Shown one piece after another: positions 6,532-39,501 of a DNA stretch of 64,000 bases. The stretch lies in contig JBAYZO010000006.1 in NCBI GenBank assembly GCA_041672465.1, forward strand, positions 1,938 to 65,937. Reading direction: 5' to 3'. The DNA comes from Eubacteriales bacterium (GTDB lineage: Bacteria; Bacillota; Clostridia; Oscillospirales; CAG-382). The position numbers and the translations under genes are program-made. Every line of letters starts with the position of its first letter. Within the stretch, counting starts at the first letter, position 1. A model generated the notes under the pieces. It was not told where the DNA came from. It was given only the letters and a program-made list of their open reading frames with translations, and searched no databases.

Positions 6532-6608
6532 GGCGGAATAGCTCAGCTGGCTAGAGCATCCGGTTCATACCCGGCAGGTCGTTGGTTCAAATCCGACTTC
6601 CGCTACCA
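6532..6608 (+). tRNA. tRNA-Met (CAT anticodon, elongator type)
   Basis: Manual cloverleaf: acceptor GGCGGAA/TTCCGCT, D-arm TAGCTCAGCTGGCTAGAGC, anticodon loop TTCATAC, T-arm GTTGG-TTCAAAT-CCGAC, encoded CCA. It resembles Bacillus elongator tRNA-Met. A lysidine-modified Ile2 tRNA cannot be excluded. Confidence 0.85.
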
Positions 6609-6659: not shown

Positions 6660-6734
6660 GGCCCGTTGGTCAAGTGGTTAAGACACCGCCCTTTCACGGC
6701 GGTAACAGCAGTTCGAACCTGCTACGGGTCACCA
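6660..6734 (+). tRNA. tRNA-Glu (TTC anticodon)
   Basis: GGCCCGTTGGTCAAGTGGTTAAGACACCGCC-CTTTCAC-GGCGG followed by the T-arm and ACGGGTCACCA. This is the typical Firmicutes tRNA-Glu sequence with encoded CCA. Confidence 0.9.
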
Positions 6735-26495: not shown

Positions 26496-27734
26496 TCAGT
26501 TATAAATAGGGAACTTTTCGCAAAGCTCTTTTACCCCCGAAAGGATTGCCGATTTGTTTTTTTCGTAATCTCGCGCGGCAAGCCCCATCCATTCGGCTAT
26601 CATCGCCATTTCGCCTTTTCCGAACCCCCGCGAGGTGACGGCGGGAGTGCCGACTCTCAGCCCGCTTGTGACGGTGGGGAGCTGGGGGTCGTCGGGGATG
26701 GCGTTTTTGTTGGCGGTGATATGCACATCGTCAAGATTTTTCTCATAAACCTTGCCGGTGACGCCAAAACGCCGCAGGTCAAGGAGGATCAAATGGTTGT
26801 CGGTGCCGCCGGAAACAAGGTCAAAGCCGTTTTCCGCAAGTCTTTCGGCAAGCGAAGACGCGTTTTCAACTATATGTTTCTGGTAAGATTTAAACTCGTC
26901 GGTGAGCGCCTCGCCGAAAGCCACCGCCTTGGCGGCGATTATATGCATGAGCGGCCCGCCCTGAGTGCCGGGGAAGAGCGCCTTGTCGATTTTCTTTCCA
27001 AGCTCTTCCTTGCAGAGTATCAGCCCGCCTCTTGGGCCGCGGAGCGTCTTGTGGGTTGTGGTGGTCACCACATCGGCATAGGGAACCGGATTCGGGTGAA
27101 GCCCTGCCGCCACAAGCCCCGCTATGTGAGCCATATCCACCATAAGGTAGGCGCCGGCCTTTCGGGCGATCTCGCCGCAGCGCTTAAAGTCAATCACCCG
27201 CGGATACGCCGACGCGCCCGCGAGAATAAGCTTTGGCTTGTGTTTTACGGCAAGGCGTTCCATTTCGTCATAGTCAATCCGCCGGTCGGCCTTGTCAACG
27301 CCGTACGGGACAATATTAAAATATTTACCCGAGATATTCACGGGAGAGCCGTGGGAGAGATGCCCGCCGTGGGCGAGCGACATCGACAGCACCGTGTCGC
27401 CGGGAGTCAGCAGCGCGAAAAAAACCGCGAGGTTGGCGTTCGCGCCGCTGTGGGGCTGAACGTTGGCGTGCTCGGCGCCGAAAAGCACTTTCGCCCGATC
27501 CCGCGCTATGTTCTCAACTATATCCACATACTGGCACCCGCCGTAATACCTCGCCGCCGGGTAGCCCTCGGCGTATTTGTTGGTCAGCACGCTCCCGGCC
27601 GCAAGCAGCACTGCTTTTGACACGATGTTTTCAGAGGCGATAAGCTCGATATTATAGCGCTGCCTTTGCATTTCAAGTTCGCAGGCGTCATAAACCTCGG
27701 CGTCATAATTTTTTAACTCGTCAAAAAAGAACAT
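26496..27734 (-). CDS. glyA: Serine hydroxymethyltransferase
   Basis: [11 protein letters not shown] and the PLP-Lys motif [17 protein letters not shown] 27734 lies 6 nt after GGGGGT. Confidence 0.95.
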
Positions 27735-27879
27735 TAAATACCCCCACAGCATATAGCATTAAATTTTGTCGCGGCTTTTAAAGCCGTTGTCAATTATATA
27801 ACAAGTTCCCCGATTTGTAAATAGCCCAAGGCAATTATAAAAGACTTTGGTTAAATTTATAAAGCTTTGCGCGTTGACT

Positions 27880-29253
27880 TTAGCGGGTGAGCTCCCAGTA
27901 AAAGCCTATCTCCCCCGTCGGCGGTGAAATAAAAGTTATGGTTATCTCGGTCGCGTCGGCGGTGGCGTAGTACTGGGCTTTCGCGGCGCCCGAAGTCGAC
28001 GGCGTCAGGATAACGGTTTTCGGAACGGCTTTTAAGGAATGTTTGATTTTATACACGGTCTTTTCCCCCGTCGCGCCAAAGCTGAAACTGCCGCTGACTC
28101 TGTCGTTATACACATATGTTCCGGTTCGGTCATACACCTGAAGGTTTGTTATGGCGAGAACCGAGTTTTTATCCGAAGGAGATTTTATTCCGTCGTCGTT
28201 AACCACCGTGCAGGAATCAAGCGTCACCACGCCGACGGCGTTTGTCGCGTCGAGTAAAAAGTAATTTTTATTGTCGGCGGTCGAGTTAAGCATACAGTCG
28301 CGGAAGGTCAGGTTCATAACCCGCGTTCCGGTGTTGGTGATGTTCAGTATGCCATGAGAGGCGTTTTCAAACCATGTTCCGACAAAATTTGTCGGCCTTG
28401 TCCCGCCTTTTTTGGGGATAAGTATATCGGTGACGTTCGAGGCGAAGATCCCGCCTATGACATGAACGCCGTCAAAGGATTCGCCGTTGAGGTAGTCGAG
28501 CACAAGCCCCGCCTCGCAGGTGGCTATTCTCGGGTGGATAATTATGTTGCCCGAGCCGTACAGGTGAAGCCCGTATGTGCAGCTTGAGCAAAACACGTTT
28601 TCAAACATACAGTCGAAGATTCCAACCCCCGACGGTTCCGCGCCGCCGTCAATTCCGCAGTATATCCCCGAAAAAACAAGGTTTTTAAACGTGCCGATGG
28701 CGGAATTATATTTGTCAAGCGTAGAGCCACCCAAAATACCCGTTACCCCGCTCACGCCCGAGGACAGGAAAAAGAAGTTTTCGATATCCGTTCCCCAAAG
28801 CGCCTCGTTTGAGGTGTCTATCATCGGTGAATCGGGGTTCCCCGCCCAAATAAGCCTTGTCGACCACATTCCCTCGCCCGTAAGGGAGACTTTCGCCTTT
28901 TTTACAAGAGTTGACTTTAAAGTATAGCTCCCCGACGGGAAATAGACAACCCCTCCGCCCGACGCCGCGCAGGCGTCGATTGCGGACTGAATAGCCCCCG
29001 AGTCGTCCAACCCGTTCCCTTTCGCGCCGTAGTCAAGGATATTGTGCGCCGTCATTACGTTTTTGGCTTTTTCGTATATCACTTTCGGCTCCTCGCTTGT
29101 TTTTTCTTTTTCCGAGCTTTCGTTGCTTCCGCTGTTTTCAAATGAACTTGCCGATTCCCCGCTGTTTGTTCCCCCGCCGGCGCAGGAGGTAAAAGCCGCG
29201 AAGAGAAGCGCGGCGATAAGAGAAACGGAAATAAAAAGTATTTTCTTTTTCAT
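27880..29253 (-). CDS. Lipoprotein with pectate-lyase-superfamily right-handed beta-helix domain
   Basis: Lipobox FTSC. HNILDYGAKGNGLDDSGAIQSAIDACAASGGGVVYFPSGSY is the signature N-terminus of the Pectate_lyase_3 / tailspike-like fold. Confidence 0.75.
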   Translation of the reverse strand: MKKKILFISVSLIAALLFAAFTSCAGGGTNSGESASSFENSGSNESSEKEKTSEEPKVIYEKAKNVMTAHNILDYGAKGNGLDDSGAIQSAIDACAASGGGVVYFPSGSYTLKSTLVKKAKVSLTGEGMWSTRLIWAGNPDSPMIDTSNEALWGTDIENFFFLSSGVSGVTGILGGSTLDKYNSAIGTFKNLVFSGIYCGIDGGAEPSGVGIFDCMFENVFCSSCTYGLHLYGSGNIIIHPRIATCEAGLVLDYLNGESFDGVHVIGGIFASNVTDILIPKKGGTRPTNFVGTWFENASHGILNITNTGTRVMNLTFRDCMLNSTADNKNYFLLDATNAVGVVTLDSCTVVNDDGIKSPSDKNSVLAITNLQVYDRTGTYVYNDRVSGSFSFGATGEKTVYKIKHSLKAVPKTVILTPSTSGAAKAQYYATADATEITITFISPPTGEIGFYWELTR

Positions 29254-29296
29254 TAATAAAACCATCCCTTAATTAATACGTTAATCAATCTAACCG

Positions 29297-30490
29297 CTAA
29301 CCTTTTGTTTTTTCACCGGCGGTAATTCGGTTTACCCCAAGAAGACCGTCCATTATATTCGAGCAGCACCAGCCGGTGTAAACCGAATACATTCCGCCCT
29401 CGTCTATGGTGTTGTTTTGGTTTGCTCTCCCCTCCCAGCGCTTTGAGACCGGGTTATACGAGCCGCGCCACGCGCCGTCCCACAGTTTGCTCTCGCCCTC
29501 GCACTGGACGGACACCAAAAAGTCGGCCAGCTTTACCGCGGCGCGCTTGTATTCGTCTCTGCCGGTCAGATCAAACGCCTCGTTAAGCCCCATGAGCGCA
29601 AAGCCTTGGGTATAGACAAGGTCGCATATAAACATATTGCTCTGGAGCGACGCGGTCTTGCCCTCCTCGTCGGAATTCATTATCCCGCCGCTCTCATGCT
29701 GAAGCGACATTACATAATCTGCCGCTTTTTCAAAGGCGTTTTTATAAACGTCGGATTTAATATACTTAAGTATTCTCGCGAGACAAAACACGGCGATTGA
29801 CGCTTCGGAGGAGGCGGGCCGCCAGTCTTCTCTTTTCATAAGTTCATATGAAGTGGTAAATCTGCCGTTTTCCTTTTGGAGCGGGAGTACATAACCAAGC
29901 GCCAAAACCGCGCTTGACTTATATTTTTCTTCCCCCGTCAGCCCATAGCACATGGCGAGCCCCGCCGCGAGCCAAAACACAAAGCAGGGGCCTTTATAGG
30001 GGCTTTGGGTGACGCCGTTGTCGTACCGCATGAAAAAGCCCTGCGGGCGCTGGATACTCATCCAGTGGTTCGCGAGCTTTAGGGCGGCTTCTTTCAGCCT
30101 TTCGTCGCCGGAAATTTCAAACATATCCAAAAGCGCGATAAGCACCTTGCCGTTGTCGTTCTGCCACCTCGCCTGACCGTTGTTCGCGAGAATTTCGCCG
30201 TCGTTTAAAAAGAAGGGGAACGAGCCGTACCACGCCGACATGGGTTCGTTGTCCTGAACCGAAAGCAGCCAGTTTATAATATTTTCGTATACGTCGGCCG
30301 AGCTTTCCCTGCCGCGCTTTAAATAGGCGCGGGCGATTTCGGAATTGCAGTCGGGGCGGGTCCAGTTAACCCGGCGGTTGACGTCAATTCGGATTCTCTC
30401 ATACACTCCCACGCTCCCGCGGTTAAAGGAAAGCATTTGGCTTTCCATCCAGTCAAGGCATTTGTCAACGCTTTTTACATACTTATCCAT
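29297..30490 (-). CDS. Hypothetical protein, probable (alpha/alpha)6-toroid (six-hairpin glycosidase/prenyltransferase-like) fold
   Basis: 397 aa with repeated helical hairpin segments carrying conserved W/G/aromatic positions. There is no signal peptide. The fold assignment is an impression only. Confidence 0.4.
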   Translation of the reverse strand: MDKYVKSVDKCLDWMESQMLSFNRGSVGVYERIRIDVNRRVNWTRPDCNSEIARAYLKRGRESSADVYENIINWLLSVQDNEPMSAWYGSFPFFLNDGEILANNGQARWQNDNGKVLIALLDMFEISGDERLKEAALKLANHWMSIQRPQGFFMRYDNGVTQSPYKGPCFVFWLAAGLAMCYGLTGEEKYKSSAVLALGYVLPLQKENGRFTTSYELMKREDWRPASSEASIAVFCLARILKYIKSDVYKNAFEKAADYVMSLQHESGGIMNSDEEGKTASLQSNMFICDLVYTQGFALMGLNEAFDLTGRDEYKRAAVKLADFLVSVQCEGESKLWDGAWRGSYNPVSKRWEGRANQNNTIDEGGMYSVYTGWCCSNIMDGLLGVNRITAGEKTKG

Positions 30491-30502
30491 TTTGCACTTC
30501 CT

Positions 30503-31981
30503 TTATCTGAATTTTTCCATGGCGTCGAAAAGATCTGTCATGACTTTCCCCTCGATCCTGTCGTAATAAGAGACAAAGTCCGAGGAAGACGCAATGTTCA
30601 TGTTTTGAATGAGCTCCCCTATACCGCCGAAATTGTAAATATAACCCAAGTCGTACACGCGGGAGGAAAAGATAATGTCAAGCATTCTTTCCGATTCCTC
30701 GTCGACAAGGTCGCGGCCTTTTAAGGTTTTGTCGTAATAGGCTTTCGTGAGTGTTTCCACCGAGTAAAAAGCCATGGCGTCGAGCACCGATGCGGTGTTC
30801 TCGGGGCTTTTGCAGTTGGCGGGGATCACCACGCAGGGGACAAGCCCCGTCGAAACAAGACAGCGGTAGCTCTCCTGCTCCGAATCAAGCAGGGGATAGG
30901 GGAGGATCCCGAAGTCAAACCCCTCCGCGCCGCGGAAACCCTTGATATCAATCAGCGCGAAAGTGGTAAACATCACTTGGTCGTTTAGGAACATGGGGCA
31001 GATATCCTGAAAAGTGCCGCAGCCTCTGTTTTTATTTGTAAGCACATCGGGCTTAAAGGCAATTTCAAACACGCGGGAAAGTATAGACTGATTTGCCTTT
31101 GATGTTATTGAAATAACAAGGTTGCCCTCGGCGTCTGTTTCCGTTATCGTGCCGCCGCAGCCGAAATAAAACGAGTGCGGGGCGTTAAACGCCACATGAA
31201 GGCCGTAGTTGTCGTGGTTATCCCAAATATTCTCGTCGGCCTTGTTTTCAGAAAAACCCTTGCTTATCTCGTAAACATGGTCGAGCGTCCAAGTTTTTTC
31301 CTCCACCATTTTATAAACGTCGCCTATGCCGTAGTCGCGGGCAAGCTTTTTGTTGAAGAACATCACCATTGTGCAGTCGTTGTCGAGAATTGAAATATCG
31401 CCTGTGGAAAAAAACAGTTTTCCGTTTATCTCAAGCCCTTCGTTGGCTTTTTGGTCCCACCAGCTCTCGGCGAGATTGAGCTGTTCAAAGTCGTGCAGGT
31501 CAAGCATATACCCGTCGCCCGCGATCTTGGCGGCGTCGTTTATCATGGGCATATAGACGTCATATGTATTCAGCCCCGCGTCAAAATTAAGCCGCAGGTC
31601 GTTTGTCACATTGTTTGACTTGTCGGCGCGGATTAAACACCCCAGCCGGCTTTCAACAAGCTGGTTTCTGTTATAGACGGCGTCGTTGATGGTTTCCTCG
31701 GTGCGCTCTTCCGAATAAATTTCAAACGATTCGTAGTATGAGTACCCGCTCCCCGGCACAAGGAAGTTAAAAATAACTCCGCCGAGGTTAAGCTGTTCGG
31801 GCTCGTAAGGTATTTCTTCGCTGACGGACGACTCGTTGCTTTCGGGTTCGCCGGGGTCGCTGATTGCCGAAGACGAATCCCCCGGTGAGGGTTCCCCGCA
31901 GGAAGACAGAAACAGCGATGCGGAAATAAGCGTTAAAACAAAAAGAACCGATAAGAGTAAACTGACCCTTCGTGAAAACAT
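30503..31981 (-). CDS. Lipoprotein, extracellular solute-binding-protein-like
   Basis: Lipobox LSSC and a Ser/Glu/Pro linker. Size and composition resemble the about-490-aa family-1 SBP-like proteins of Clostridia. No permease genes are adjacent. Confidence 0.5.
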   Translation of the reverse strand: MFSRRVSLLLSVLFVLTLISASLFLSSCGEPSPGDSSSAISDPGEPESNESSVSEEIPYEPEQLNLGGVIFNFLVPGSGYSYYESFEIYSEERTEETINDAVYNRNQLVESRLGCLIRADKSNNVTNDLRLNFDAGLNTYDVYMPMINDAAKIAGDGYMLDLHDFEQLNLAESWWDQKANEGLEINGKLFFSTGDISILDNDCTMVMFFNKKLARDYGIGDVYKMVEEKTWTLDHVYEISKGFSENKADENIWDNHDNYGLHVAFNAPHSFYFGCGGTITETDAEGNLVISITSKANQSILSRVFEIAFKPDVLTNKNRGCGTFQDICPMFLNDQVMFTTFALIDIKGFRGAEGFDFGILPYPLLDSEQESYRCLVSTGLVPCVVIPANCKSPENTASVLDAMAFYSVETLTKAYYDKTLKGRDLVDEESERMLDIIFSSRVYDLGYIYNFGGIGELIQNMNIASSSDFVSYYDRIEGKVMTDLFDAMEKFR

Positions 31982-32132
31982 ATTTCTTCCACCTTTCTTT
32001 ACATAGTCTGAACAGTTTTGGCTAAGTTTTAGGCTAAAGCCTGTTTTAACCTAAGAATACATTACACAAGGCTAAAAGTCAATGAACTTTGTTAAAAATT
32101 CCCGCCGGGCAAAAATAAAACAGACGTTCTTA

Positions 32133-32162
32133 TTGACATACGGCGATAAGATATGTTATATT
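32133..32162 (+). promoter_or_regulatory. Sigma-A promoter of the SCIFF locus
   Basis: TTGACA (32133-32138), a 17/18-nt spacer, then TGtTATATT, an extended -10. Confidence 0.55.
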
Positions 32163-32217
32163 TTATATGTAAAAAGACAAACGATAAAAGACTTAGACTT
32201 AAAAGGGGATATTATCA

Positions 32218-32379
32218 ATGAAAGTTAAGAGAATTAAAACCTTAAAGACCCGCGACTTATGCGTCAGCGCCGTAAAAGGCGGCTGCGGCGAATGCCAGAC
32301 TTCCTGCCAGTCCGCCTGCAAAACGTCCTCGGGCGTGGCTAACCAGCCCTGCGAAAACCAAAAGTCAAAGCAGCGGTAA
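32218..32379 (+). CDS. SCIFF (six-cysteines-in-forty-five) ranthipeptide precursor
   Basis: Hand translation gives MKVKRIKTLKTRDLCVSAVKGGCGECQTSCQSACKTSSGVANQPCENQKSKQR. An AAAGGGG SD lies 8 nt upstream. It sits directly upstream of the cognate radical SAM maturase. It is absent from the ORF track because it is under 60 aa. Confidence 0.9.
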   Translation: MKVKRIKTLKTRDLCVSAVKGGCGECQTSCQSACKTSSGVANQPCENQKSKQR

Positions 32380-32411
32380 AACAAGTTATGCCTTTGCACG
32401 GCAGAGCATAT

Positions 32412-32453
32412 AAAGGGCCGACGCATACGCATATGCCGAGGTCCTTTTAATTT
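32412..32453 (+). terminator. Hairpin plus T-tract between precursor and maturase genes (candidate attenuator)
   Basis: AAAGGGCC ... GGTCCTTTT outer stem (one G-U pair) with inner stem GCATA-CGCA-TATGC, followed by TTTTAATTT. Confidence 0.55.
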
Positions 32454-32470
32454 GGAGATGGATTTAACAA

Positions 32471-33958
32471 ATGATTCACATGTATAAGCTAAACGGCTAT
32501 AACATAGTCCTTGACACCTACAGCGGGAGCGTCCACAGCGTGGACGACGTCGCGTATGATATGATTTCGCTTTACCAAAGCCTTGGCGGGGGCAAAGAAG
32601 GGGAGGGGGAAATTATACGCCTGCTGACGGAAAAATACGGCGCAGGCCATGGCGTGAGCCGCGGAGAGCTTGAAGAGTGTCTTTGCGATATAAAAGAACT
32701 AATAAACGAAAAAAAGCTTTTTAGCCCCGATATTTATAAAGACCTTGCCAAAACGCGCCATAAAAGCGACAATGCCGTGAAAGCGCTCTGCCTGCATGTC
32801 GCCCACACCTGCAACTTAAACTGCGAGTACTGTTTCGCGAGTCAGGGCAAGTATAAAGGGGAGCGGGCGCTTATGACGTTTGAGGCGGGAAAGCGGGCGA
32901 TTGATTTTCTTGTGGAAAACAGTTCTTCCCGCCATAACCTTGAAGTGGATTTTTTCGGCGGAGAACCGCTTATGAACTTTGACACGGTCAAGCGCCTTGT
33001 CGGCTACGCGAGGAGTATTGAAAAGTCAAAAAACAAGAATTTTCGGTTTACCCTCACCACAAACGGGCTGCTTATCGACGACGGGGTAATCGACTTCTGC
33101 AACAGAGAAATGGACAACGTAGTGCTCAGCCTTGACGGGAGAAAAGAAGTCCACGACCGTTTCAGGAAGGATTACCGCGGCAACGGCAGCTATGAAAGAA
33201 TTCTGCCGAAGTTCCGCGAGTTTGTAAAGCGGCGGGGGGATAAAAGCTATTATATCCGCGGCACATATACGCATCTGAACACCGACTTTACAAATGATTT
33301 GTTTCATATGGCGTCCCTTGGGTTTAAGCACCTTAGCATGGAGCCCGTGGTCTGCCCGCCCGGCGATATTTACGCGCTTACAAAAGAGGATATCCCGGTA
33401 TTGTTCGGGCAATATGAGATTTTGGCAAAGGAAATGATAAAGCGGGAAAAACAGGGCAACCCCTTTACCTTCTACCACTTTACCCTTGACCTTGAGGGCG
33501 GCCCCTGCGTTTACAAACGGATAAACGGCTGCGGGTCGGGGAGCGAATACCTTGCCGTGACCCCTTGGGGCGACCTGTACCCCTGCCACCAGTTTGTGGG
33601 GGACGAAAAATTTCTTATGGGGAACATTTATGACGGGGTGACAAATACAAATTTAAGGGAAAAGTTTAAAAAAACAAGCGCGTATTCCCGCGAGGAATGC
33701 GAGAATTGCTGGGCAAAGCTTTACTGTTCCGGCGGGTGCGCGGCAAACGCCTACCACGCCACGGGGGAGATAAACGGGGTTTATGAATACGGCTGCGAAC
33801 TGTTTAAAAAGCGAATGGAATGCGCGATAATGGTAAAAGTCGCCGCCGCCGATAGCGAAAGCGATGAAATTGACGGCCGCAACACGGAAAAAAGCCATAA
33901 CCGCGGCGAGCGCAATAAAGCGGAAAGCTTTCCGGCGGGTAAAAAAGCGGGGGTTTAA
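32471..33958 (+). CDS. SCIFF radical SAM/SPASM maturase (ranthipeptide thioether synthase)
   Basis: MIHMYKLNGYNIVLDTYSGSVHSVDD N-terminus, CNLNCEYC radical SAM cluster motif, and SPASM Cys clusters (CGSGSEY...YPCHQF...CENCWAKLYCSGGC). Confidence 0.92.
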   Translation: MIHMYKLNGYNIVLDTYSGSVHSVDDVAYDMISLYQSLGGGKEGEGEIIRLLTEKYGAGHGVSRGELEECLCDIKELINEKKLFSPDIYKDLAKTRHKSDNAVKALCLHVAHTCNLNCEYCFASQGKYKGERALMTFEAGKRAIDFLVENSSSRHNLEVDFFGGEPLMNFDTVKRLVGYARSIEKSKNKNFRFTLTTNGLLIDDGVIDFCNREMDNVVLSLDGRKEVHDRFRKDYRGNGSYERILPKFREFVKRRGDKSYYIRGTYTHLNTDFTNDLFHMASLGFKHLSMEPVVCPPGDIYALTKEDIPVLFGQYEILAKEMIKREKQGNPFTFYHFTLDLEGGPCVYKRINGCGSGSEYLAVTPWGDLYPCHQFVGDEKFLMGNIYDGVTNTNLREKFKKTSAYSREECENCWAKLYCSGGCAANAYHATGEINGVYEYGCELFKKRMECAIMVKVAAADSESDEIDGRNTEKSHNRGERNKAESFPAGKKAGV

Positions 33959-33959
33959 A

Positions 33960-35318
33960 GTGGAAACGCCTATTGTGTCTTTTGTAAACGAATATATAAA
34001 AAATAAACCCTCGCGGTTTCATGTGCCGGGGCATAAGGGGAGGGTGAAGTGCGGCGGAGAGCCCTTTGATATCACCGAAGTCACGGGAGCGGGGAATCTT
34101 TACTCTTTTGAGGGAATTATCGCCGAAAGCGAAAAAATTGCCTCTCGTTTGTTTGGCTTCGGGGGGACGTTTTATTCGACCGAGGGGTCTTCCCAATGCG
34201 TCAAGGTAATGCTGTACCTCGCGAAAAAAGCCTGTCTTTCCGACGGAAGCGAGGGGGGGCGCATAATCGCCGAACGGGGGGCGCATAGGTCTCTCTTGTC
34301 CGCTCTCGCGTTCTGTAATATTGATGTAAACTGGGTTTATTCGGAAAAAACCAAGGACGGGAAGGCTGTTTTAAGTAAAGACGAGCTTATGGGCGCCGTA
34401 AACGGCTCAAAAGACAAGCCCTTTGCTTTGTTTGTCACTTCCCCCGACTACTACGGGCGCGCCCATGACATTGCAAGACTTGCGGCTTTTTGCCGCGAGA
34501 ACGGGATGTTTCTCCTTGTCGACAACGCCCACGGCGCGTATATGAGGTTTCTTTCCCCCTCCGCTCACCCGGTTTCTCTCGGCGCTTTTATGTCGAGTGA
34601 CTCCGCCCATAAGACGCTTCCCGTCTATACCGGCGGGGCGTATCTCCAGCTTTCGGTTCAGGCGAGCGCAAAAGTCTTTTACCTTGCCAAAAGCGCTATT
34701 TCGCTGTTTTGCTCCACCAGCCCGTCGTATCTCACGCTTTGCTCGCTTGACAGGTGCAACGCTTATCTTTCTGACGGCTACGCCGAAAAACTAAGCCGCC
34801 ATATTAAAGAGATTGAAGCCGTTAAACAAAAAGCCGCTGAAAAAGGCTTTTGCGTTTTGCCGTCAGACCCGCTGAGAATGGTCATAGACGCCAAAGAAAG
34901 CCGCTTTGACGGGCGTGAAATAGCGGCAATCCTTTGTAAAAATCATGTTGAAGCCGAGCTTTATGACAAAGATTCGCTTGTGCTGATGACAACCCCGGAA
35001 AACACGCCGAAAGACTTTGAAAAGCTTTTATCCGCGCTTGACTTGTGTTTAAAACTAAAAAAGAGCGGTATCGGGGAACATACGGAACCCCACCGCCCGC
35101 TAACGCCAAAAAAACAAATGACGGTAAAACAAGCGCTTGAGTCGCGGCATGAGGAAGTTATAACGGATTTGGCGCTTGGGAGAACGCTTGCCTTCCCCCC
35201 GTTTTGCGGAACCCCGGAAACGCTTGCCGCGGTAAGCGGAGAGGTTATAGACCAAAGTATAATAGACTTTTATAAAGAAAAAGGCGTAAAAAGCCTGCTC
35301 ATCGTTAAAGACCGCTGA
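33960..35318 (+). CDS. PLP-dependent Orn/Lys/Arg decarboxylase-family protein
   Basis: FHVPGHKG N-terminal motif and PLP-lysine motif SDSAHKTLP. The start is taken at GTG 33960, one nt after the maturase stop. The ATG at 33864 lies inside the maturase gene. Confidence 0.8.
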   Translation: METPIVSFVNEYIKNKPSRFHVPGHKGRVKCGGEPFDITEVTGAGNLYSFEGIIAESEKIASRLFGFGGTFYSTEGSSQCVKVMLYLAKKACLSDGSEGGRIIAERGAHRSLLSALAFCNIDVNWVYSEKTKDGKAVLSKDELMGAVNGSKDKPFALFVTSPDYYGRAHDIARLAAFCRENGMFLLVDNAHGAYMRFLSPSAHPVSLGAFMSSDSAHKTLPVYTGGAYLQLSVQASAKVFYLAKSAISLFCSTSPSYLTLCSLDRCNAYLSDGYAEKLSRHIKEIEAVKQKAAEKGFCVLPSDPLRMVIDAKESRFDGREIAAILCKNHVEAELYDKDSLVLMTTPENTPKDFEKLLSALDLCLKLKKSGIGEHTEPHRPLTPKKQMTVKQALESRHEEVITDLALGRTLAFPPFCGTPETLAAVSGEVIDQSIIDFYKEKGVKSLLIVKDR

Positions 35319-35326
35319 ATATAACA

Positions 35327-35357
35327 AAAGCCCCGGTTTAAATTTCGCCGGGGTTTT
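35327..35357 (+). terminator. Terminator between convergent decarboxylase and CDF genes
   Basis: AAAGCCCCGG-loop-CCGGGGTTTT. It overlaps the last codons of the CDF gene. Confidence 0.65.
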
Positions 35358-36255
35358 CATGTATCATAATATGTTTTACGTCGGGGAAGGCCTTTTCAAT
35401 GTCGTCGTGAAGTTCCTCGGCTATTTTATGCGCCTGCTCAAGCGAGAGGCTGCCGTCGACTTTTATTTCGGCGTCAACGTAAACGCCCTCGCCGAACACC
35501 CTTGTCCTCAGCCTGTCTATCCCGAGCACCCCGGAATGGTCAAGTATCAGCCGCTTTATCCCCTCAGAGGTATTGCTGTCGCAGGCGCGGTCGGTCAGCT
35601 TACTCACGGAGCGCCGAAAGATATCAACCGCAACCTTTACGATAACGGCGGAGATTGCAACGCTCGCCAGCGGGTCGAGCACCCTCAGCCCTAACCTCGC
35701 GCCGGCGATTCCGACAAGAGACCCCACAGAAGACAGCGCGTCAGAGCGGTGATGCCACGCGTCGGCCAAAAAAGCCGACGATTTAATTTTCTTTGCCCTT
35801 GATTTTGTATACCGATACATCCATTCCTTGATTACAATTGAAATCAGCGCCGCGGCAAGCGCCAGCTTCCCGGGAATCGGGAGGAGAGAATTGGTTTTTG
35901 TAAAGATAAGAGTTAAGCCTTTAGCGCCTATCGCGATCCCGGTTGCCGCGAGAAGCCCGGCGAGAAGAATCGACGCTATACTCTCAAGCCTGTCGTGTCC
36001 GTACATATGCTCGCTATCGGGCGCTTTTTTTGACAGCCTGACCCCTATGTAGGCGATAACGGTGGTAAACATATCAGAGGCGGAGTGAACGGCGTCGGAC
36101 ACCATCGCCCCTGAATTTGAAAATATCCCCGCGAAGAGCTTAAAGACCGAAAGGGCGAAATTAACGGCGACGGTCATTATCGTAAGCGAGTTTAAAGCTT
36201 GCTTATTTCCGTCGTCTTTATTGGGGTTAAGCTTTTTTCCCATAGTTCTAACCAC
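35338..36255 (-). CDS. Cation diffusion facilitator family transporter
   Basis: Six TM helices with HSASD and HHRSD metal-site motifs and a C-terminal cytoplasmic domain. Confidence 0.88.
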   Translation of the reverse strand: MVRTMGKKLNPNKDDGNKQALNSLTIMTVAVNFALSVFKLFAGIFSNSGAMVSDAVHSASDMFTTVIAYIGVRLSKKAPDSEHMYGHDRLESIASILLAGLLAATGIAIGAKGLTLIFTKTNSLLPIPGKLALAAALISIVIKEWMYRYTKSRAKKIKSSAFLADAWHHRSDALSSVGSLVGIAGARLGLRVLDPLASVAISAVIVKVAVDIFRRSVSKLTDRACDSNTSEGIKRLILDHSGVLGIDRLRTRVFGEGVYVDAEIKVDGSLSLEQAHKIAEELHDDIEKAFPDVKHIMIHENPGEI

Positions 36256-36308
36256 CTTTCAAACAGCGGCGGTTTTTAACCCTTATCTCCCGGCATTTCT
36301 TTACCAAT

Positions 36309-36337
36309 ATTATACAATATTACATCGCTTTTGTCAA
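36309..36337 (-). promoter_or_regulatory. Consensus sigma-A promoter of the CDF gene
   Basis: On the minus strand: TTGACA (36337-36332), a 17-nt spacer, then TATAAT (36314-36309). Confidence 0.6.
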
Positions 36338-36429
36338 TTAAAAACACTTCGGCGTTTTAAAGTAAAAGGCAAAGCGGGAAATAAAAGCGTACCTTAAATG
36401 TAAAAAAATAAAAATCTTTGTTTTGTATA

Positions 36430-36458
36430 TTGACAAGCCCGCTTTGCGGTGATAAAAT
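36430..36458 (+). promoter_or_regulatory. Sigma-A promoter of the pyr operon
   Basis: TTGACA (36430-36435), a 17-nt spacer, then TAAAAT (36453-36458). Confidence 0.6.
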
Positions 36459-36533
36459 ATAAACAATCTTTAAGCGCAGTACGTGATACTGCCAAGACGG
36501 TGACAAAAACATACGCCATTTTCTTGGTTTTAC

Positions 36534-36558
36534 GTCCTGCTTTCGCGGGGCTTTTTTT
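36534..36558 (+). terminator. Leader terminator-like hairpin upstream of pyrC (candidate attenuator)
   Basis: GTCCTGC-TTTC-GCGGGGC (two G-U pairs) followed by T7. It ends 24 nt before the pyrC ATG and is preceded by a CCAAGA...TCTTGG hairpin. Confidence 0.5.
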
Positions 36559-36581
36559 CGCGGCGGAGGGTAAAAATAAAA

Positions 36582-37775
36582 ATGAATGAAGTTTTAAAAA
36601 ATCGCCGTCGCGGCGAACCGAAAAGCGCGGCCGCATATGATTTTACAAAAATCATTGACGCTTTTAAAAAAGACAAATATTCGGAATACGTTGTTTTCCC
36701 CGGCTTCGCGGATGTTCATGTGCATCTGCGCGAGCCGGGTTTTTCTTATAAAGAAACAATCCGCACCGGGACTCTCGCCGCCGCGCGAGGGGGGTACACT
36801 TCTGTTTGCGCCATGCCCAACCTTAACCCTTTTCCCCATGACACAGAGGGGATAAAAAAACAGCTTCATATTATTAATACAAGCGCCGTCGTGGATGTAT
36901 TCCCCTACGGCACCATAACATATCGGGAAGAGGGCGAAAAGGTTTCGGACATGGAAGCTCTCGCGAAATACGCGGTGGCTTTTTCCGACGACGGCAGAGG
37001 CGTTGCCGATAAAGCTGTGATGCGCGAGGCCATGCTAAGGGCAAAAAGCCTTGGCAGAATTATCGCGTCGCACTGCGAGCTAAACCCAAAACAGCCCGGG
37101 GAAAGCGGCGGAGAAGAGGAATGGCGGCAGGTTGAGCGGGACTTAAGCCTCGCGCAAGAAACCGGCTGTAAATATCACGTCTGCCATGTCTCCACAAAAG
37201 AATCGGTCAATCTCATCCGCGGGGCAAAGAAGTCCGGGGTTGACGTCAGCTGCGAGACCGCGCCGCATTATCTTATTCTTGATAAGACTTCGCGAAAAGA
37301 CTCCGGCAGGTTTAAAATGAACCCTCCGCTTAGGACAAAGCAAGACCGCGAGGCGCTGGCGGCGGGGGTTTGCGACGGAACGGTAGATATGATAGCGACC
37401 GATCACGCCCCGCACTCGGAGGAAGAAAAATCCCGCGGGTTTAAGGACAGTCTCCCCGGCGTGACGGGGCTTGAGGTTTCGTTCCCGGCGCTTTACACTT
37501 TTCTTGTCAAAGGCGGGTTGATAACGCTTGAAAAACTTCTTGGCCTTATCACCCGCGCACCGAGAGAGCGTTTTGGGCTTAGCCAATCCCCCGATGACTT
37601 TACGGTGTTTGACCTTAATGAGAGCTTTACGATTGACCCGGGCGAATTTATCTCAAAAGGCAAATCCACGCCTTTCGAGGGGATTTCCGTGTTCGGGCGG
37701 TGCCATTTCACCCACGCAAAAGGGAAAAATGTGTGGGTTTCAAAAAGGGCGGAGGAAATTTTAAGGGGAATATGA
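36582..37775 (+). CDS. pyrC: Dihydroorotase
   Basis: DVHVHLREPG motif, carboxylated-lysine region and ATDHAPH. Confidence 0.92.
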   Translation: MNEVLKNRRRGEPKSAAAYDFTKIIDAFKKDKYSEYVVFPGFADVHVHLREPGFSYKETIRTGTLAAARGGYTSVCAMPNLNPFPHDTEGIKKQLHIINTSAVVDVFPYGTITYREEGEKVSDMEALAKYAVAFSDDGRGVADKAVMREAMLRAKSLGRIIASHCELNPKQPGESGGEEEWRQVERDLSLAQETGCKYHVCHVSTKESVNLIRGAKKSGVDVSCETAPHYLILDKTSRKDSGRFKMNPPLRTKQDREALAAGVCDGTVDMIATDHAPHSEEEKSRGFKDSLPGVTGLEVSFPALYTFLVKGGLITLEKLLGLITRAPRERFGLSQSPDDFTVFDLNESFTIDPGEFISKGKSTPFEGISVFGRCHFTHAKGKNVWVSKRAEEILRGI

Positions 37776-38518
37776 AAGAAAACACGATAGAGCAAAAGTT
37801 TGAGATAACAGAAAACCGCAAAATCGCCGATATGGTCTACGAGACTGTCCTTGTCGGCGACACTTCCCGCGTCACTTCCCCGGGGCAGTTTGTGAGCGTC
37901 TCGCTCGGGGGTTTCTTCCTGCGGAGGCCGTTTTCGGTCTGCGATAAAAGCGGCGGCCGCCTGACGCTTATATACAAAACGGTGGGGAGCGGGACAAAAT
38001 ATATGTCAAGCCTTAAAAAAGGGAGCGTTTTAAACCTCTTAACCGGGCTTGGCAACGGGTTTGAGGTGAAAAACAGCAAAGACTCTCCCCTGCTTATCGG
38101 CGGGGGGGTGGGTCTGCCGCCGCTGTATTTTTTGGCTAAATGTCTTACCGCCGAGGGAAAAGATGTGGCGCTTATAATGGGGTTCGGCAAATCAAGCGAA
38201 GTATTCTATGAAGAAAAGTTTAAGGAGTTGGGGGTAAGGGTCGCCGTTACCACGGCAGACGGTTCACGGGGGATAAAAGGTTTTGTGACAGACGCGCTCG
38301 GCCTTTTTACCGGCTACACCTATACCTATGCCTGCGGCCCCGAACAAATGTTAAAGGCGGTTTGGGAAAGTACCCGAACGGACGGCGAGTACAGCTTTGA
38401 GGAGCGAATGGGCTGCGGGTTCGGCGCCTGTATGGGGTGTTCGAGAAAAACAGTCGGCGGGTATAAAAAAGTGTGCAGCGACGGCCCGGTCTTTAAAAAG
38501 GGGGAAATCCTATGGTGA
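37772..38518 (+). CDS. pyrK: Dihydroorotate dehydrogenase B electron-transfer subunit
   Basis: FAD/NAD-binding fold (RRPFSV) and C-terminal 2Fe-2S Cys cluster CGFGACMGC...C. The start forms an ATGA overlap with the pyrC stop. Confidence 0.9.
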   Translation: MKENTIEQKFEITENRKIADMVYETVLVGDTSRVTSPGQFVSVSLGGFFLRRPFSVCDKSGGRLTLIYKTVGSGTKYMSSLKKGSVLNLLTGLGNGFEVKNSKDSPLLIGGGVGLPPLYFLAKCLTAEGKDVALIMGFGKSSEVFYEEKFKELGVRVAVTTADGSRGIKGFVTDALGLFTGYTYTYACGPEQMLKAVWESTRTDGEYSFEERMGCGFGACMGCSRKTVGGYKKVCSDGPVFKKGEILW

Positions 38519-39501
38519 GAAAAATCGAAAACGGAGCGCAAAACCCCATGGGGTACCGTAAAAATTCAACCGGACAGCCCGAGGGCAACCCCGACACAAG
38601 AGTCAGCCTTTGCGGGGTTGAGCTTGACAACCCGATTATCCCCGCCAGCGGGACTTTTGGCTACGGAGTTGAGTTCGCCAAGCTCTATGACATTAACATT
38701 TTAGGCACGTTTTCCATGAAAAGCGCTACAAAAGAACCCCGCTTCGGCAACATTACGCCGCGAATAGCCGAATGCGCGTCGGGTATGCTAAACGCGGTGG
38801 GACTTCAAAACCCGGGGCTTGAATCCGTGCTGGCTCATGAGCTGCCGGAGATTAAAAAGGTCTTTAAAAAAAAGATAATGGCAAACGTCAGCGGGTTTTC
38901 GGTGGACGAATATGTCACAAACGCCGCCGCCCTCGGGGACGACCCGCAAATCGGCTGGATAGAGCTTAACATAAGCTGCCCCAATGTAAAGCGCGGGGGG
39001 GAGCATTTCGGGAACAGCCCGAGCGACGCCTTTACCCTCACCCGGGAGGTTAAGCAAGCGGTTCAAAAACCAATTATCGTAAAGCTTTCCCCGAACACCG
39101 GGGATATCGCCGCGATTTCTGCCGCCTGCGAAGAGGCGGGGGCGGACGGGCTTAGCCTTATAAACACCATAAAAGGCATGAGAATTGATTTAAAAACTCA
39201 AAAGCCCGTCCTCGCCAACAAAACCGGCGGGCTTTCCGGCCCTGCCGTCTTCCCCGTGGCGCTGAGGATGGTCTATGAGGTCTACGAAGCGGTTAAGCTC
39301 CCCATTGTCGGTATCGGCGGGGTTTCAACCGCCGAAGACGTAATTGAAATGATGCTGGCGGGCGCCGCCGCCGTGGGGGTGGGCGCCGCGAATCTTATAA
39401 ACCCCTACGCCTGCAGGGATATAATCGAGTCCCTGCCCGGCGTTATGAGGGAATACGGCATAACAAGGCTCACGGATATAATAGGAGGCGCGCATAATTA
39501 A
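38512..39501 (+). CDS. pyrD: Dihydroorotate dehydrogenase B catalytic subunit
   Basis: NPIIPASGTFGYG, GLQNPG and IGIGGV motifs. The start may be ATG 38512 or 38548. Confidence 0.92.
   Translation: MVRKIENGAQNPMGYRKNSTGQPEGNPDTRVSLCGVELDNPIIPASGTFGYGVEFAKLYDINILGTFSMKSATKEPRFGNITPRIAECASGMLNAVGLQNPGLESVLAHELPEIKKVFKKKIMANVSGFSVDEYVTNAAALGDDPQIGWIELNISCPNVKRGGEHFGNSPSDAFTLTREVKQAVQKPIIVKLSPNTGDIAAISAACEEAGADGLSLINTIKGMRIDLKTQKPVLANKTGGLSGPAVFPVALRMVYEVYEAVKLPIVGIGGVSTAEDVIEMMLAGAAAVGVGAANLINPYACRDIIESLPGVMREYGITRLTDIIGGAHN

Follow-up and report, generated by a model that had tools for sequence, protein, structure and literature searches.

The closest described relatives of the genes treated here are CteA and CteB (thermocellin) of Acetivibrio thermocellus, the enzyme being represented by the structures PDB 5WGG and 5WHY, and Tte1186a and Tte1186 of Caldanaerobacter subterraneus. 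Each pair comprises a SCIFF ranthipeptide precursor and a radical S-adenosylmethionine (SAM)/SPASM maturase that joins a cysteine sulphur of the precursor to a non-alpha carbon. Our subject is a SCIFF locus in a 64-kb stretch of DNA (64,000 nucleotides of contig JBAYZO010000006.1, GenBank assembly GCA_041672465.1, Eubacteriales bacterium), referred to below as the window, in which a precursor gene, scfA, immediately precedes a maturase gene, scfB. The locus is very probably a canonical scfA-scfB operon, its host being an uncultured member of the Clostridia of gut or rumen type, and the interpretation as a SCIFF pair, advanced in a preliminary description of the sequence, is supported by our analysis.

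The known facts about SCIFF peptides used here were taken from reviews (PMC8326336, PMC8172795, PMC10114670 and PMC8102284). As summarised in PMC8326336 and PMC8172795, one thioether, Cys32-Thr37, was reported for both Tte1186a and CteA in vitro, coexpression in E. coli by Hudson et al. (2019) gave a Cys32-Thr34 link between sulphur and C-gamma, and Cys32 is the sole cysteine that has been shown to react so far. SCIFF genes are regarded as part of the Clostridia core genome and not as a mobile bacteriocin cluster (PMC8326336). The preliminary description treated their biological role as still to be settled, and this holds insofar as the role is poorly defined, yet it is not blank. According to the account in PMC8102284, C. 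beijerinckii with disrupted genes for precursor and maturase showed lowered expression of sporulation genes and raised expression of the agr quorum-sensing locus (Chen et al. 2020), and quorum sensing is listed for SCIFF in PMC8326336, the organisms of Chen et al. being solventogenic clostridia.

The locus in the window has the same two-gene layout as CteA and CteB. CteB gives a full-length match to the maturase (E = 1e-162), with the CxxxCxxC motif and all cysteines of the SPASM region aligned, although the window enzyme carries an additional 37-residue tail. Tte1186a and Tte1186 fall into the same equivalog families as the window pair, TIGR03973 and TIGR03974, and yielded a single Cys32-derived thioether in vitro (PMC8326336). 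A more distant parallel is provided by PapA and PapB (freyrasin) of Paenibacillus polymyxa, which share the radical SAM/SPASM ranthipeptide chemistry linking cysteine sulphur to a non-alpha carbon. However, PapB belongs to another family, and freyrasin is built on six Cys-x3-Asp motifs with bonds between sulphur and C-beta, whereas the window core lacks Asp acceptors.

The precursor gene and its maturase

The gene scfA occupies positions 32218 to 32379 of the + strand. As reported in the preliminary description, its ATG at 32218 and its TAA at 32377-32379 bound an open reading frame (ORF), checked in the sequence and the ORF list, that translates into the 53-amino acid (aa) peptide MKVKRIKTLKTRDLCVSAVKGGCGECQTSCQSACKTSSGVANQPCENQKSKQR. 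This peptide scores 76 bits against the hidden Markov model (HMM) TIGR03973, for which the cutoff is 50 (E = 1.6e-21, model positions 1-43 of 43), in agreement with the family proposed for it, and 73.9 bits against PF13165, where the cutoff is 27 (model positions 1-44 of 44). It has 4,339 homologues at E <= 1e-3 among 5.8 billion proteins.

For comparison, 80 genomic loci were collected from GTDB species representatives with scfB as query, at 63-70% maturase identity. They stem from metagenome-assembled genomes (MAGs) of gut and rumen Clostridia labelled Acutalibacteraceae, Oscillospiraceae, Ruminococcus etc., and in about 75 of the 80 scfB is directly preceded by a SCIFF ORF that has the same orientation. 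When the 26-codon core of scfA was compared with 72 related loci, the codon differences in the + frame comprised 703 synonymous and 141 non-synonymous changes, and 838 of the 1026 base differences fell at codon position 3. This bias indicates that scfA is under purifying selection and that the 77-aa antisense ORF overlapping it (32199..32432, - strand), for which a Pfam search gave no match, is spurious, as had been supposed.

The gene had been presented as unlisted. It was indeed absent from the first ORF track, evidently through a length cut-off, but an identical 53-aa gene had already been called, with its PF13165 hit recorded, on the public NCBI MAG contig GCA_041668585.1:JBAYCT010000094.1, whose sequence agrees at 100% identity with positions 30177-37611 of the window. 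Since thousands of SCIFF loci have been annotated and the identical gene has been called publicly, the scfA-scfB locus is an ordinary, already annotated member of the SCIFF/ScfB family. In itself it matters little, SCIFF genes being near-universal in Clostridia, covered by curated equivalog HMMs and routinely named by the NCBI pipeline; the comparative results described below are of modest value. Its peculiarities are a serine at the fifth canonical cysteine position, a cysteine in the leader and the maturase tail, and an adjacent gene for a pyridoxal phosphate (PLP)-dependent enzyme constitutes clade-level context.

The scfA stop codon is separated by a 91-nt spacer from the start of scfB (32471..33958, + strand), which encodes a predicted thioether-forming SCIFF maturase of 495 aa. 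This protein scores 732 bits against TIGR03974 ("thioether cross-link-forming SCIFF peptide maturase"; cutoff 425, E = 2.2e-220, model positions 1-451 of 451) and remains below the cutoffs of all the rival models: 552 bits against 855 for NF040492, the model of ScfB-related orphans, 265 against 340 for PapB, 244 against 453 for QhpD, 108.6 against 349.45 for the anaerobic sulfatase maturase (anSME) family TIGR03942 and 116 against 720 for RumMC. The assignment to the SCIFF maturases made in the preliminary description is thus borne out. The homology to the "not_ScfB" orphan maturases of NF040492 is strong but, in addition to the score, the window enzyme differs from them in having a SCIFF gene directly upstream. 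The best PDB match is CteB, with 545 bits over residues 1-457, and the next is anSME (4K36) with 56 bits.

Radical_SAM, Fer4_12 and SPASM domains were detected above their Pfam gathering cutoffs. The radical SAM motif C114-x3-C118-x2-C121 aligns with that of CteB, and each of the cysteines 346, 354, 372, 410, 413, 419, 423, 442 and 451 of the SPASM region aligns with a CteB cysteine, so that the CxxxCxxC and SPASM clusters noted earlier were both recovered. Residues 1-103, which include an 11-residue insertion, align with the RRE-forming N-terminus of CteB and are RRE-like by this alignment. Judged by its sequence, scfB is an orthologue of the CteB and Tte1186 genes with all three Fe-S cluster motifs. 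The C-terminal tail, AADSESDEIDGRNTEKSHNRGERNKAESFPAGKKAGV (aa 459-495; 33845-33955), extends past the ends of both the TIGR03974 model and CteB and is charged, of low complexity and non-conserved; the maturase of locus L086, with 497 aa, is similarly long.

Expression signals and the intergenic hairpin

A sigma-70-type promoter was located at 32133..32162 on the + strand, where the preliminary description had placed a TTGACA/TATATT pair. It consists of TTGACA, an 18-nt spacer and TG-n-TATATT, matches the consensus at 11 of 12 positions with an extended -10 TG in addition, and outranks every other site in the interval scanned, 31900-34100; recognised by consensus match alone, it is predicted to drive the locus. 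The Shine-Dalgarno sequence AAAGGGG reported earlier is also present (32202..32208, + strand), at 9 nt before the ATG at 32218 and not at 8 nt, a trivial difference. A scan at Rfam gathering thresholds revealed no riboswitch or leader near the scfAB locus.

The spacer between scfA and scfB contains a hairpin (32412-32447) and, after it, a U-rich tail, UUUUAAUUU, the whole element extending over 32412..32455 on the + strand. The 101-nt spacer region folds with a minimum free energy of -27 kcal/mol (z = -2.4). Recurrence of the element was assessed by requiring a dG of <= -12 kcal/mol followed by >= 5 T in 8 nt, with shuffled spacers, the reverse strand and segments internal to scfB as controls; this stricter test replaced a lenient criterion (dG <= -8) that was uninformative, all 73 of 73 loci being positive. 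A hairpin with a T-rich tail was then found in the scfA-scfB spacer of 69 of the 73 related loci, as against 3 of 146 shuffled spacers and 4 of 73 scfB-internal segments. The reverse strand gave 27 positives out of 73, as is to be expected because the stems are palindromic. The hairpin sequences vary among the loci while the hairpin recurs, and hence it is the structure that is conserved and not the sequence.

These properties suggest that the hairpin acts as a leaky intrinsic terminator, or attenuator, which would probably terminate part of the transcripts and thereby provide more transcript for the precursor than for the enzyme. A terminator-like hairpin placed between precursor and enzyme genes represents a conserved design feature of these loci.

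Cysteine pattern and predicted cross-links

The CteA sequence, MKHIKILNGSTLKDSLKKGGCGECQTSCQSACKTSCTVANQSCEKR, was taken from the A. thermocellus genome and aligned with the window peptide, whose numbering is higher by 2 because its leader is two residues longer. The core block GGCGECQTSCQSACKTS..NQ.CE is identical in the two peptides at 21 positions. The leader of the window peptide comprises roughly residues 1-20 and includes Cys15, and the core carries Cys23, Cys26, Cys30, Cys34, Thr36, Ser38, Gly39 and Cys45. Five canonical cysteines of CteA, C21, C24, C28, C32 and C43, correspond to Cys23, Cys26, Cys30, Cys34 and Cys45, whereas the fifth canonical cysteine, C36, is replaced by Ser38. The donor Cys32 and the in-vivo acceptor T34 are kept as Cys34 and Thr36, and the in-vitro acceptor T37 has become Gly39; the acceptor Thr37 of Tte1186a, compared from the descriptions in the reviews, likewise has no counterpart other than Gly39. 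Also peculiar to the window peptide are the extra leader cysteine, Cys15 (codon at 32260-32262), for which CteA has no equivalent, and a basic C-terminal tail, NQKSKQR.

The block of conserved cysteines that had been taken as the hallmark of the SCIFF family therefore needs a qualification: family membership stands, but the fifth cysteine is Ser38 and a sixth cysteine is reached by count through the leader. Thus six cysteines (Cys15, 23, 26, 30, 34 and 45) do lie within residues 9-53, the C-terminal ~45 residues in which six are looked for, solely by virtue of Cys15. SCIFF peptides contain "an average of 6 Cys" (PMC8172795), so that six is typical and not strictly defining.

A sequencing error was considered as the source of Ser38 and rejected, since its codon is TCG while every cysteine codon in scfA is TGC, a difference of two bases, and since the variant recurs in other lineages. 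We surveyed 133 core units from the 120 nearest database homologues, a sample biased towards the query. Only the fourth and fifth cysteines vary among these units, the substitute being nearly always serine (13 and 18 units, respectively). None of the approximately 75 GTDB loci showed the change at the fifth position. Serine at the fourth position (QSASKTS...), which corresponds to CteA Cys32, the sole experimentally demonstrated donor, was seen for example in P0001, P0002, P0005, P0008, P0009 and P0011, and in several such units the fifth cysteine is serine as well. Variants of this kind are unable to form the Cys32 link, and other cross-links or functions must therefore matter in them. Confined as it is to these two positions, the exchange of cysteine for serine amounts to natural mutagenesis bearing on which cysteines are essential.

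The acceptor side is more uniform. Glycine at the position of CteA Thr37 is the rule in the sampled clade, where about 75 of 75 loci read KTSCGV, and the equivalent of CteA Thr34 is invariant in the alignments made here. To judge from these alignments, the two observations favour the in-vivo assignment, Cys32-Thr34, over the in-vitro one.

By analogy with the characterised systems described in the reviews (PMC8326336, PMC8172795), the N-terminal RRE of ScfB would bind the conserved leader (…RIKTLKTRDL…), and reductive cleavage of SAM would generate a 5'-deoxyadenosyl radical that takes a hydrogen atom from the acceptor side chain. A core cysteine thiolate, probably held on an auxiliary cluster with open coordination, would then form the non-alpha thioether. 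The likeliest link would join the sulphur of Cys34 to C-gamma of Thr36, as in the Cys32-Thr34 link of CteA in vivo, since the window peptide has kept both residues, while a link of the in-vitro type, Cys32-Thr37, would be impossible as described, the corresponding position being taken by Gly39. With Ser38 in place of the fifth cysteine, at most five core thioethers could form.

Further variation in cysteine content was observed among the relatives. A leader cysteine (D/N-L-C-x-S-A) is common in the clade of the window peptide, for example in P0013, P0037, P0048 and P0099, and absent from leaders of the CteA type, so that canonical members of the clade possess seven cysteines. Many clade members carry an additional cysteine after the final CE (…QCEKCMSEK). 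Some precursors are fused doubles of 87-93 aa with two full leader and core units in a single ORF (P0001-P0011; L085:3077-3355; L065:5535-5825), and these outscore the self-hit of the query (131 against 106 bits). The double precursor of L085 has an OKR_DC_1 gene on one side and scfB on the other, at distances of 13 and 1 nt, which leave no attenuator hairpin there. We know of no prior description of this fused architecture.

Nothing speaks against membership in the SCIFF family, but several points limit the reading of the locus as a canonical SCIFF operon. Only five of the six canonical core cysteine positions are occupied in the window peptide, and the consensus terminator scan did not list the scfA-scfB hairpin, which such a simple scan misses because the stem has internal loops; the attenuation itself is deduced. 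The expression of scfA and the cross-link positions are likewise predictions from sequence, and the proposed Cys34-Thr36 link is an extrapolation from CteA, for which the literature, as far as it is summarised in PMC8326336 and PMC8172795, disagrees on the acceptor, giving Thr34 in vivo and Thr37 in vitro. Moreover, as relatives exist which lack the equivalent of Cys32, the link characterised so far need not be the one that is biologically essential. The loss of a canonical cysteine, together with the shortness of the ORF and its overlap by an antisense frame, could also be taken to mean that the 53 codons represent an ORF by chance or a pseudogene in decay, with an orphan as the downstream enzyme. 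This we consider highly improbable, given HMM scores over curated cutoffs, substitutions biased towards synonymous changes, the presence of a promoter and a Shine-Dalgarno sequence, the 552 bits on the orphan model NF040492, below its cutoff of 855, and the recurrence of the serine variant in independent lineages with intact loci. Still less credible is the assignment of scfB to another SPASM subfamily (anSME, PapB-type, QhpD or sactisynthase), with a peptide that merely resembles SCIFF. The radical SAM/SPASM architecture is shared and E-values are significant across the families, but TIGR03974 is the only model whose cutoff is passed (732 against 425), and it is matched end to end, while CteB exceeds anSME by 545 to 56 bits among PDB matches.

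A further proposal accepts the SCIFF pair and holds that Ser38 alters the chemistry, either through a different ring topology or through use of the serine hydroxyl as an ether (O-C) donor, as in ether-forming radical SAM enzymes acting on peptides that are made by ribosomes and modified after translation (RiPPs). It draws on the restriction of the changes to the fourth and fifth cysteines, on the almost exclusive choice of serine over other single-step neighbours of the cysteine codon, and on the TCG codon, which a one-base error would not produce from TGC. Serine is, however, the isosteric and conservative substitute to be expected if the cysteine is simply dispensable; the window maturase has no distinguishing feature, ScfB enzymes are not known to form ethers, and in the accounts of PMC8326336 and PMC8172795 Cys32 is the one residue shown to react. 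We regard altered chemistry as improbable, and a canonical SCIFF operon with a fifth cysteine replaced by serine as by far the better description.

A neighbouring PLP-enzyme gene and the wider window

The gene following scfB (33960..35318, + strand) encodes a 452-aa PLP-dependent protein of the Orn/Lys/Arg decarboxylase fold (OKR_DC_1, YaaO-like). It begins with a GTG at 33960, 1 nt beyond the end of scfB; the public gene call has the same start and length, and the gene is probably cotranscribed and translationally coupled with scfB. The protein scores 85 bits against the PF01276 major domain (cutoff 27, E = 5.6e-24). It shares the OKR_DC_1 fold and the PLP-lysine motif with YaaO-type decarboxylases (PDB 2X3L), SAHK218T aligning with SFHKT, but the match is a distant one (E = 1.5e-17) and no specific NCBIfam model was matched.

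Of the 80 related loci, 70 have a homologue of this gene in the same orientation as scfAB. It adjoins the pair in 65, preceding scfA directly in 36 and directly following scfB in 29, and lies within about 3 kb in 5. Among the 10 loci without it, 3 end just after scfB and 7 have enough flanking sequence. The association extends to L085, with its fused double SCIFF precursor and gaps of 13 and 1 nt, and to L086, which is labelled Lachnospiraceae, carries the serine variant and has overlapping gene calls. The S-x-H-K-T motif is kept in 64 of the 65 adjacent copies. None of the other neighbours in the window is conserved beside scfAB in any of the 80 loci, and the next commonest neighbour family occurs in 20. 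Each layout goes with one of two scfB sub-clades, the scfB products being 74% identical between and 79-81% within them and the PLP proteins about 29% between and 43-54% within the layout groups, so that each layout could have been inherited once.

These data raise the question of whether scfA, scfB and the PLP enzyme gene form a three-gene system specific to a clade of the Oscillospirales type, in which the enzyme would have the peptide as its target or share a pathway with it, for example one leading to an amine or polyamine-linked signal. Such a system would extend, and not exclude, the interpretation as a canonical SCIFF operon. The 1-nt gap after scfB, the 65 adjacent and 5 nearby copies in two layouts, set against only 20 loci for the next neighbour, the lack of any other conserved neighbour, the retained motif and the recurrence in L085 and L086 all speak for it. 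On the other hand, the gene is missing from the CteB clade, where SCIFF tends to sit among housekeeping genes, as well as from the seven loci with sufficient flank, and the adjacency may be inherited synteny, the layouts tracking the scfB sub-clades with PLP proteins that are only about 29% identical. Furthermore, according to the reviews no partner of this kind is required by CteB and Tte1186 for their activity, no RiPP chemistry known so far employs this fold, and no literature link between SCIFF and OKR_DC-type enzymes was found in the library searched. We therefore consider a functional three-gene system rather unlikely, if less so than the alternatives weighed above. Even so, the clade-specific coupled neighbour could serve as a testable lead to the physiological role of SCIFF and, were the association functional, it would provide, together with the serine variants at the fourth and fifth cysteines (including fused doubles without the donor cysteine), a handle on that role and on the essential cross-links.

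Two broader explanations for the PLP gene were rejected. It is not a universal SCIFF partner, since no copy lies up to 6 kb from the scfAB genes of Acetivibrio thermocellus (CteB), Ruminiclostridium josui or Pseudoclostridium thermosuccinogenes. Nor does scfAB simply lie beside a yaaO-tmk-holB housekeeping block: yaaO is linked to tmk and holB in Bacillus but, inspected by eye, no recurrent neighbour cluster in the 80 loci resembled tmk or holB.

No protease, exporter, second SCIFF or second OKR_DC_1 copy was found near the locus in the window, and in G+C content the locus is equal to the window as a whole. This context matches the view of SCIFF as part of the core genome. The lack of a nearby protease or exporter, which is usual for SCIFF, would fit an intracellular or signalling role better than that of a bacteriocin. 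The CteAB pair lies between yajC and secDF, whereas the window pair is placed between a gene for a sugar-binding protein and the coupled PLP enzyme gene. In the CteB clade (A. thermocellus, R. josui and P. thermosuccinogenes; L082, L083 and L084), scfA-scfB is located between queA-tgt-yajC-(DUF3792) and secD-secF, with a gene for an HD-domain or hexapeptide-repeat protein after it, a conserved housekeeping setting that differs from the one in the clade of the window. Neighbours of sporulation type were noted by eye in some sub-clades: in 6 loci scfB is directly followed by a gene for a SigE/K-like sigma factor, 11 loci have a CwlD-like amidase and 6 an SleB-like hydrolase, with examples at L036:4710-5405, L023:7136-7846 and L035:198-671; they provide only a hint.

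Divergent from scfA, the region 27880-31981 (- strand) contains genes of polysaccharide-utilisation type, with homologues that degrade pectin or other polysaccharides. They include a solute-binding-protein-like gene with a weak SBP_bac_1 match, a gene with weak, below-cutoff matches to Glyco_hydro_88 and related (alpha/alpha)6-barrel glycosidases, and one for a pectate-lyase-fold lipoprotein, and a serine hydroxymethyltransferase gene lies at 26496-27752. The only Rfam hits at gathering threshold in the 64-kb window are two tRNA genes at 6532-6605 and 6660-6731 (+ strand). Downstream of the PLP enzyme gene and convergent with it is a cation-efflux (CDF) gene (35338-36255, - strand). It has a promoter at 36309-36337 (- strand) matching the consensus at 12 of 12 positions, from which a second promoter diverges within the CDF/pyrC intergenic region (36430-36458, + strand; 11 of 12 positions with an extended -10 TG). 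The latter precedes a pyrimidine operon comprising genes for dihydroorotase (36582-37775) and a pyrK-like product (37700-38518) and pyrD (38512-39501). A terminator-like hairpin at 36534-36551 (+ strand), placed after this promoter and ahead of the dihydroorotase gene, could be a pyr-type attenuator.

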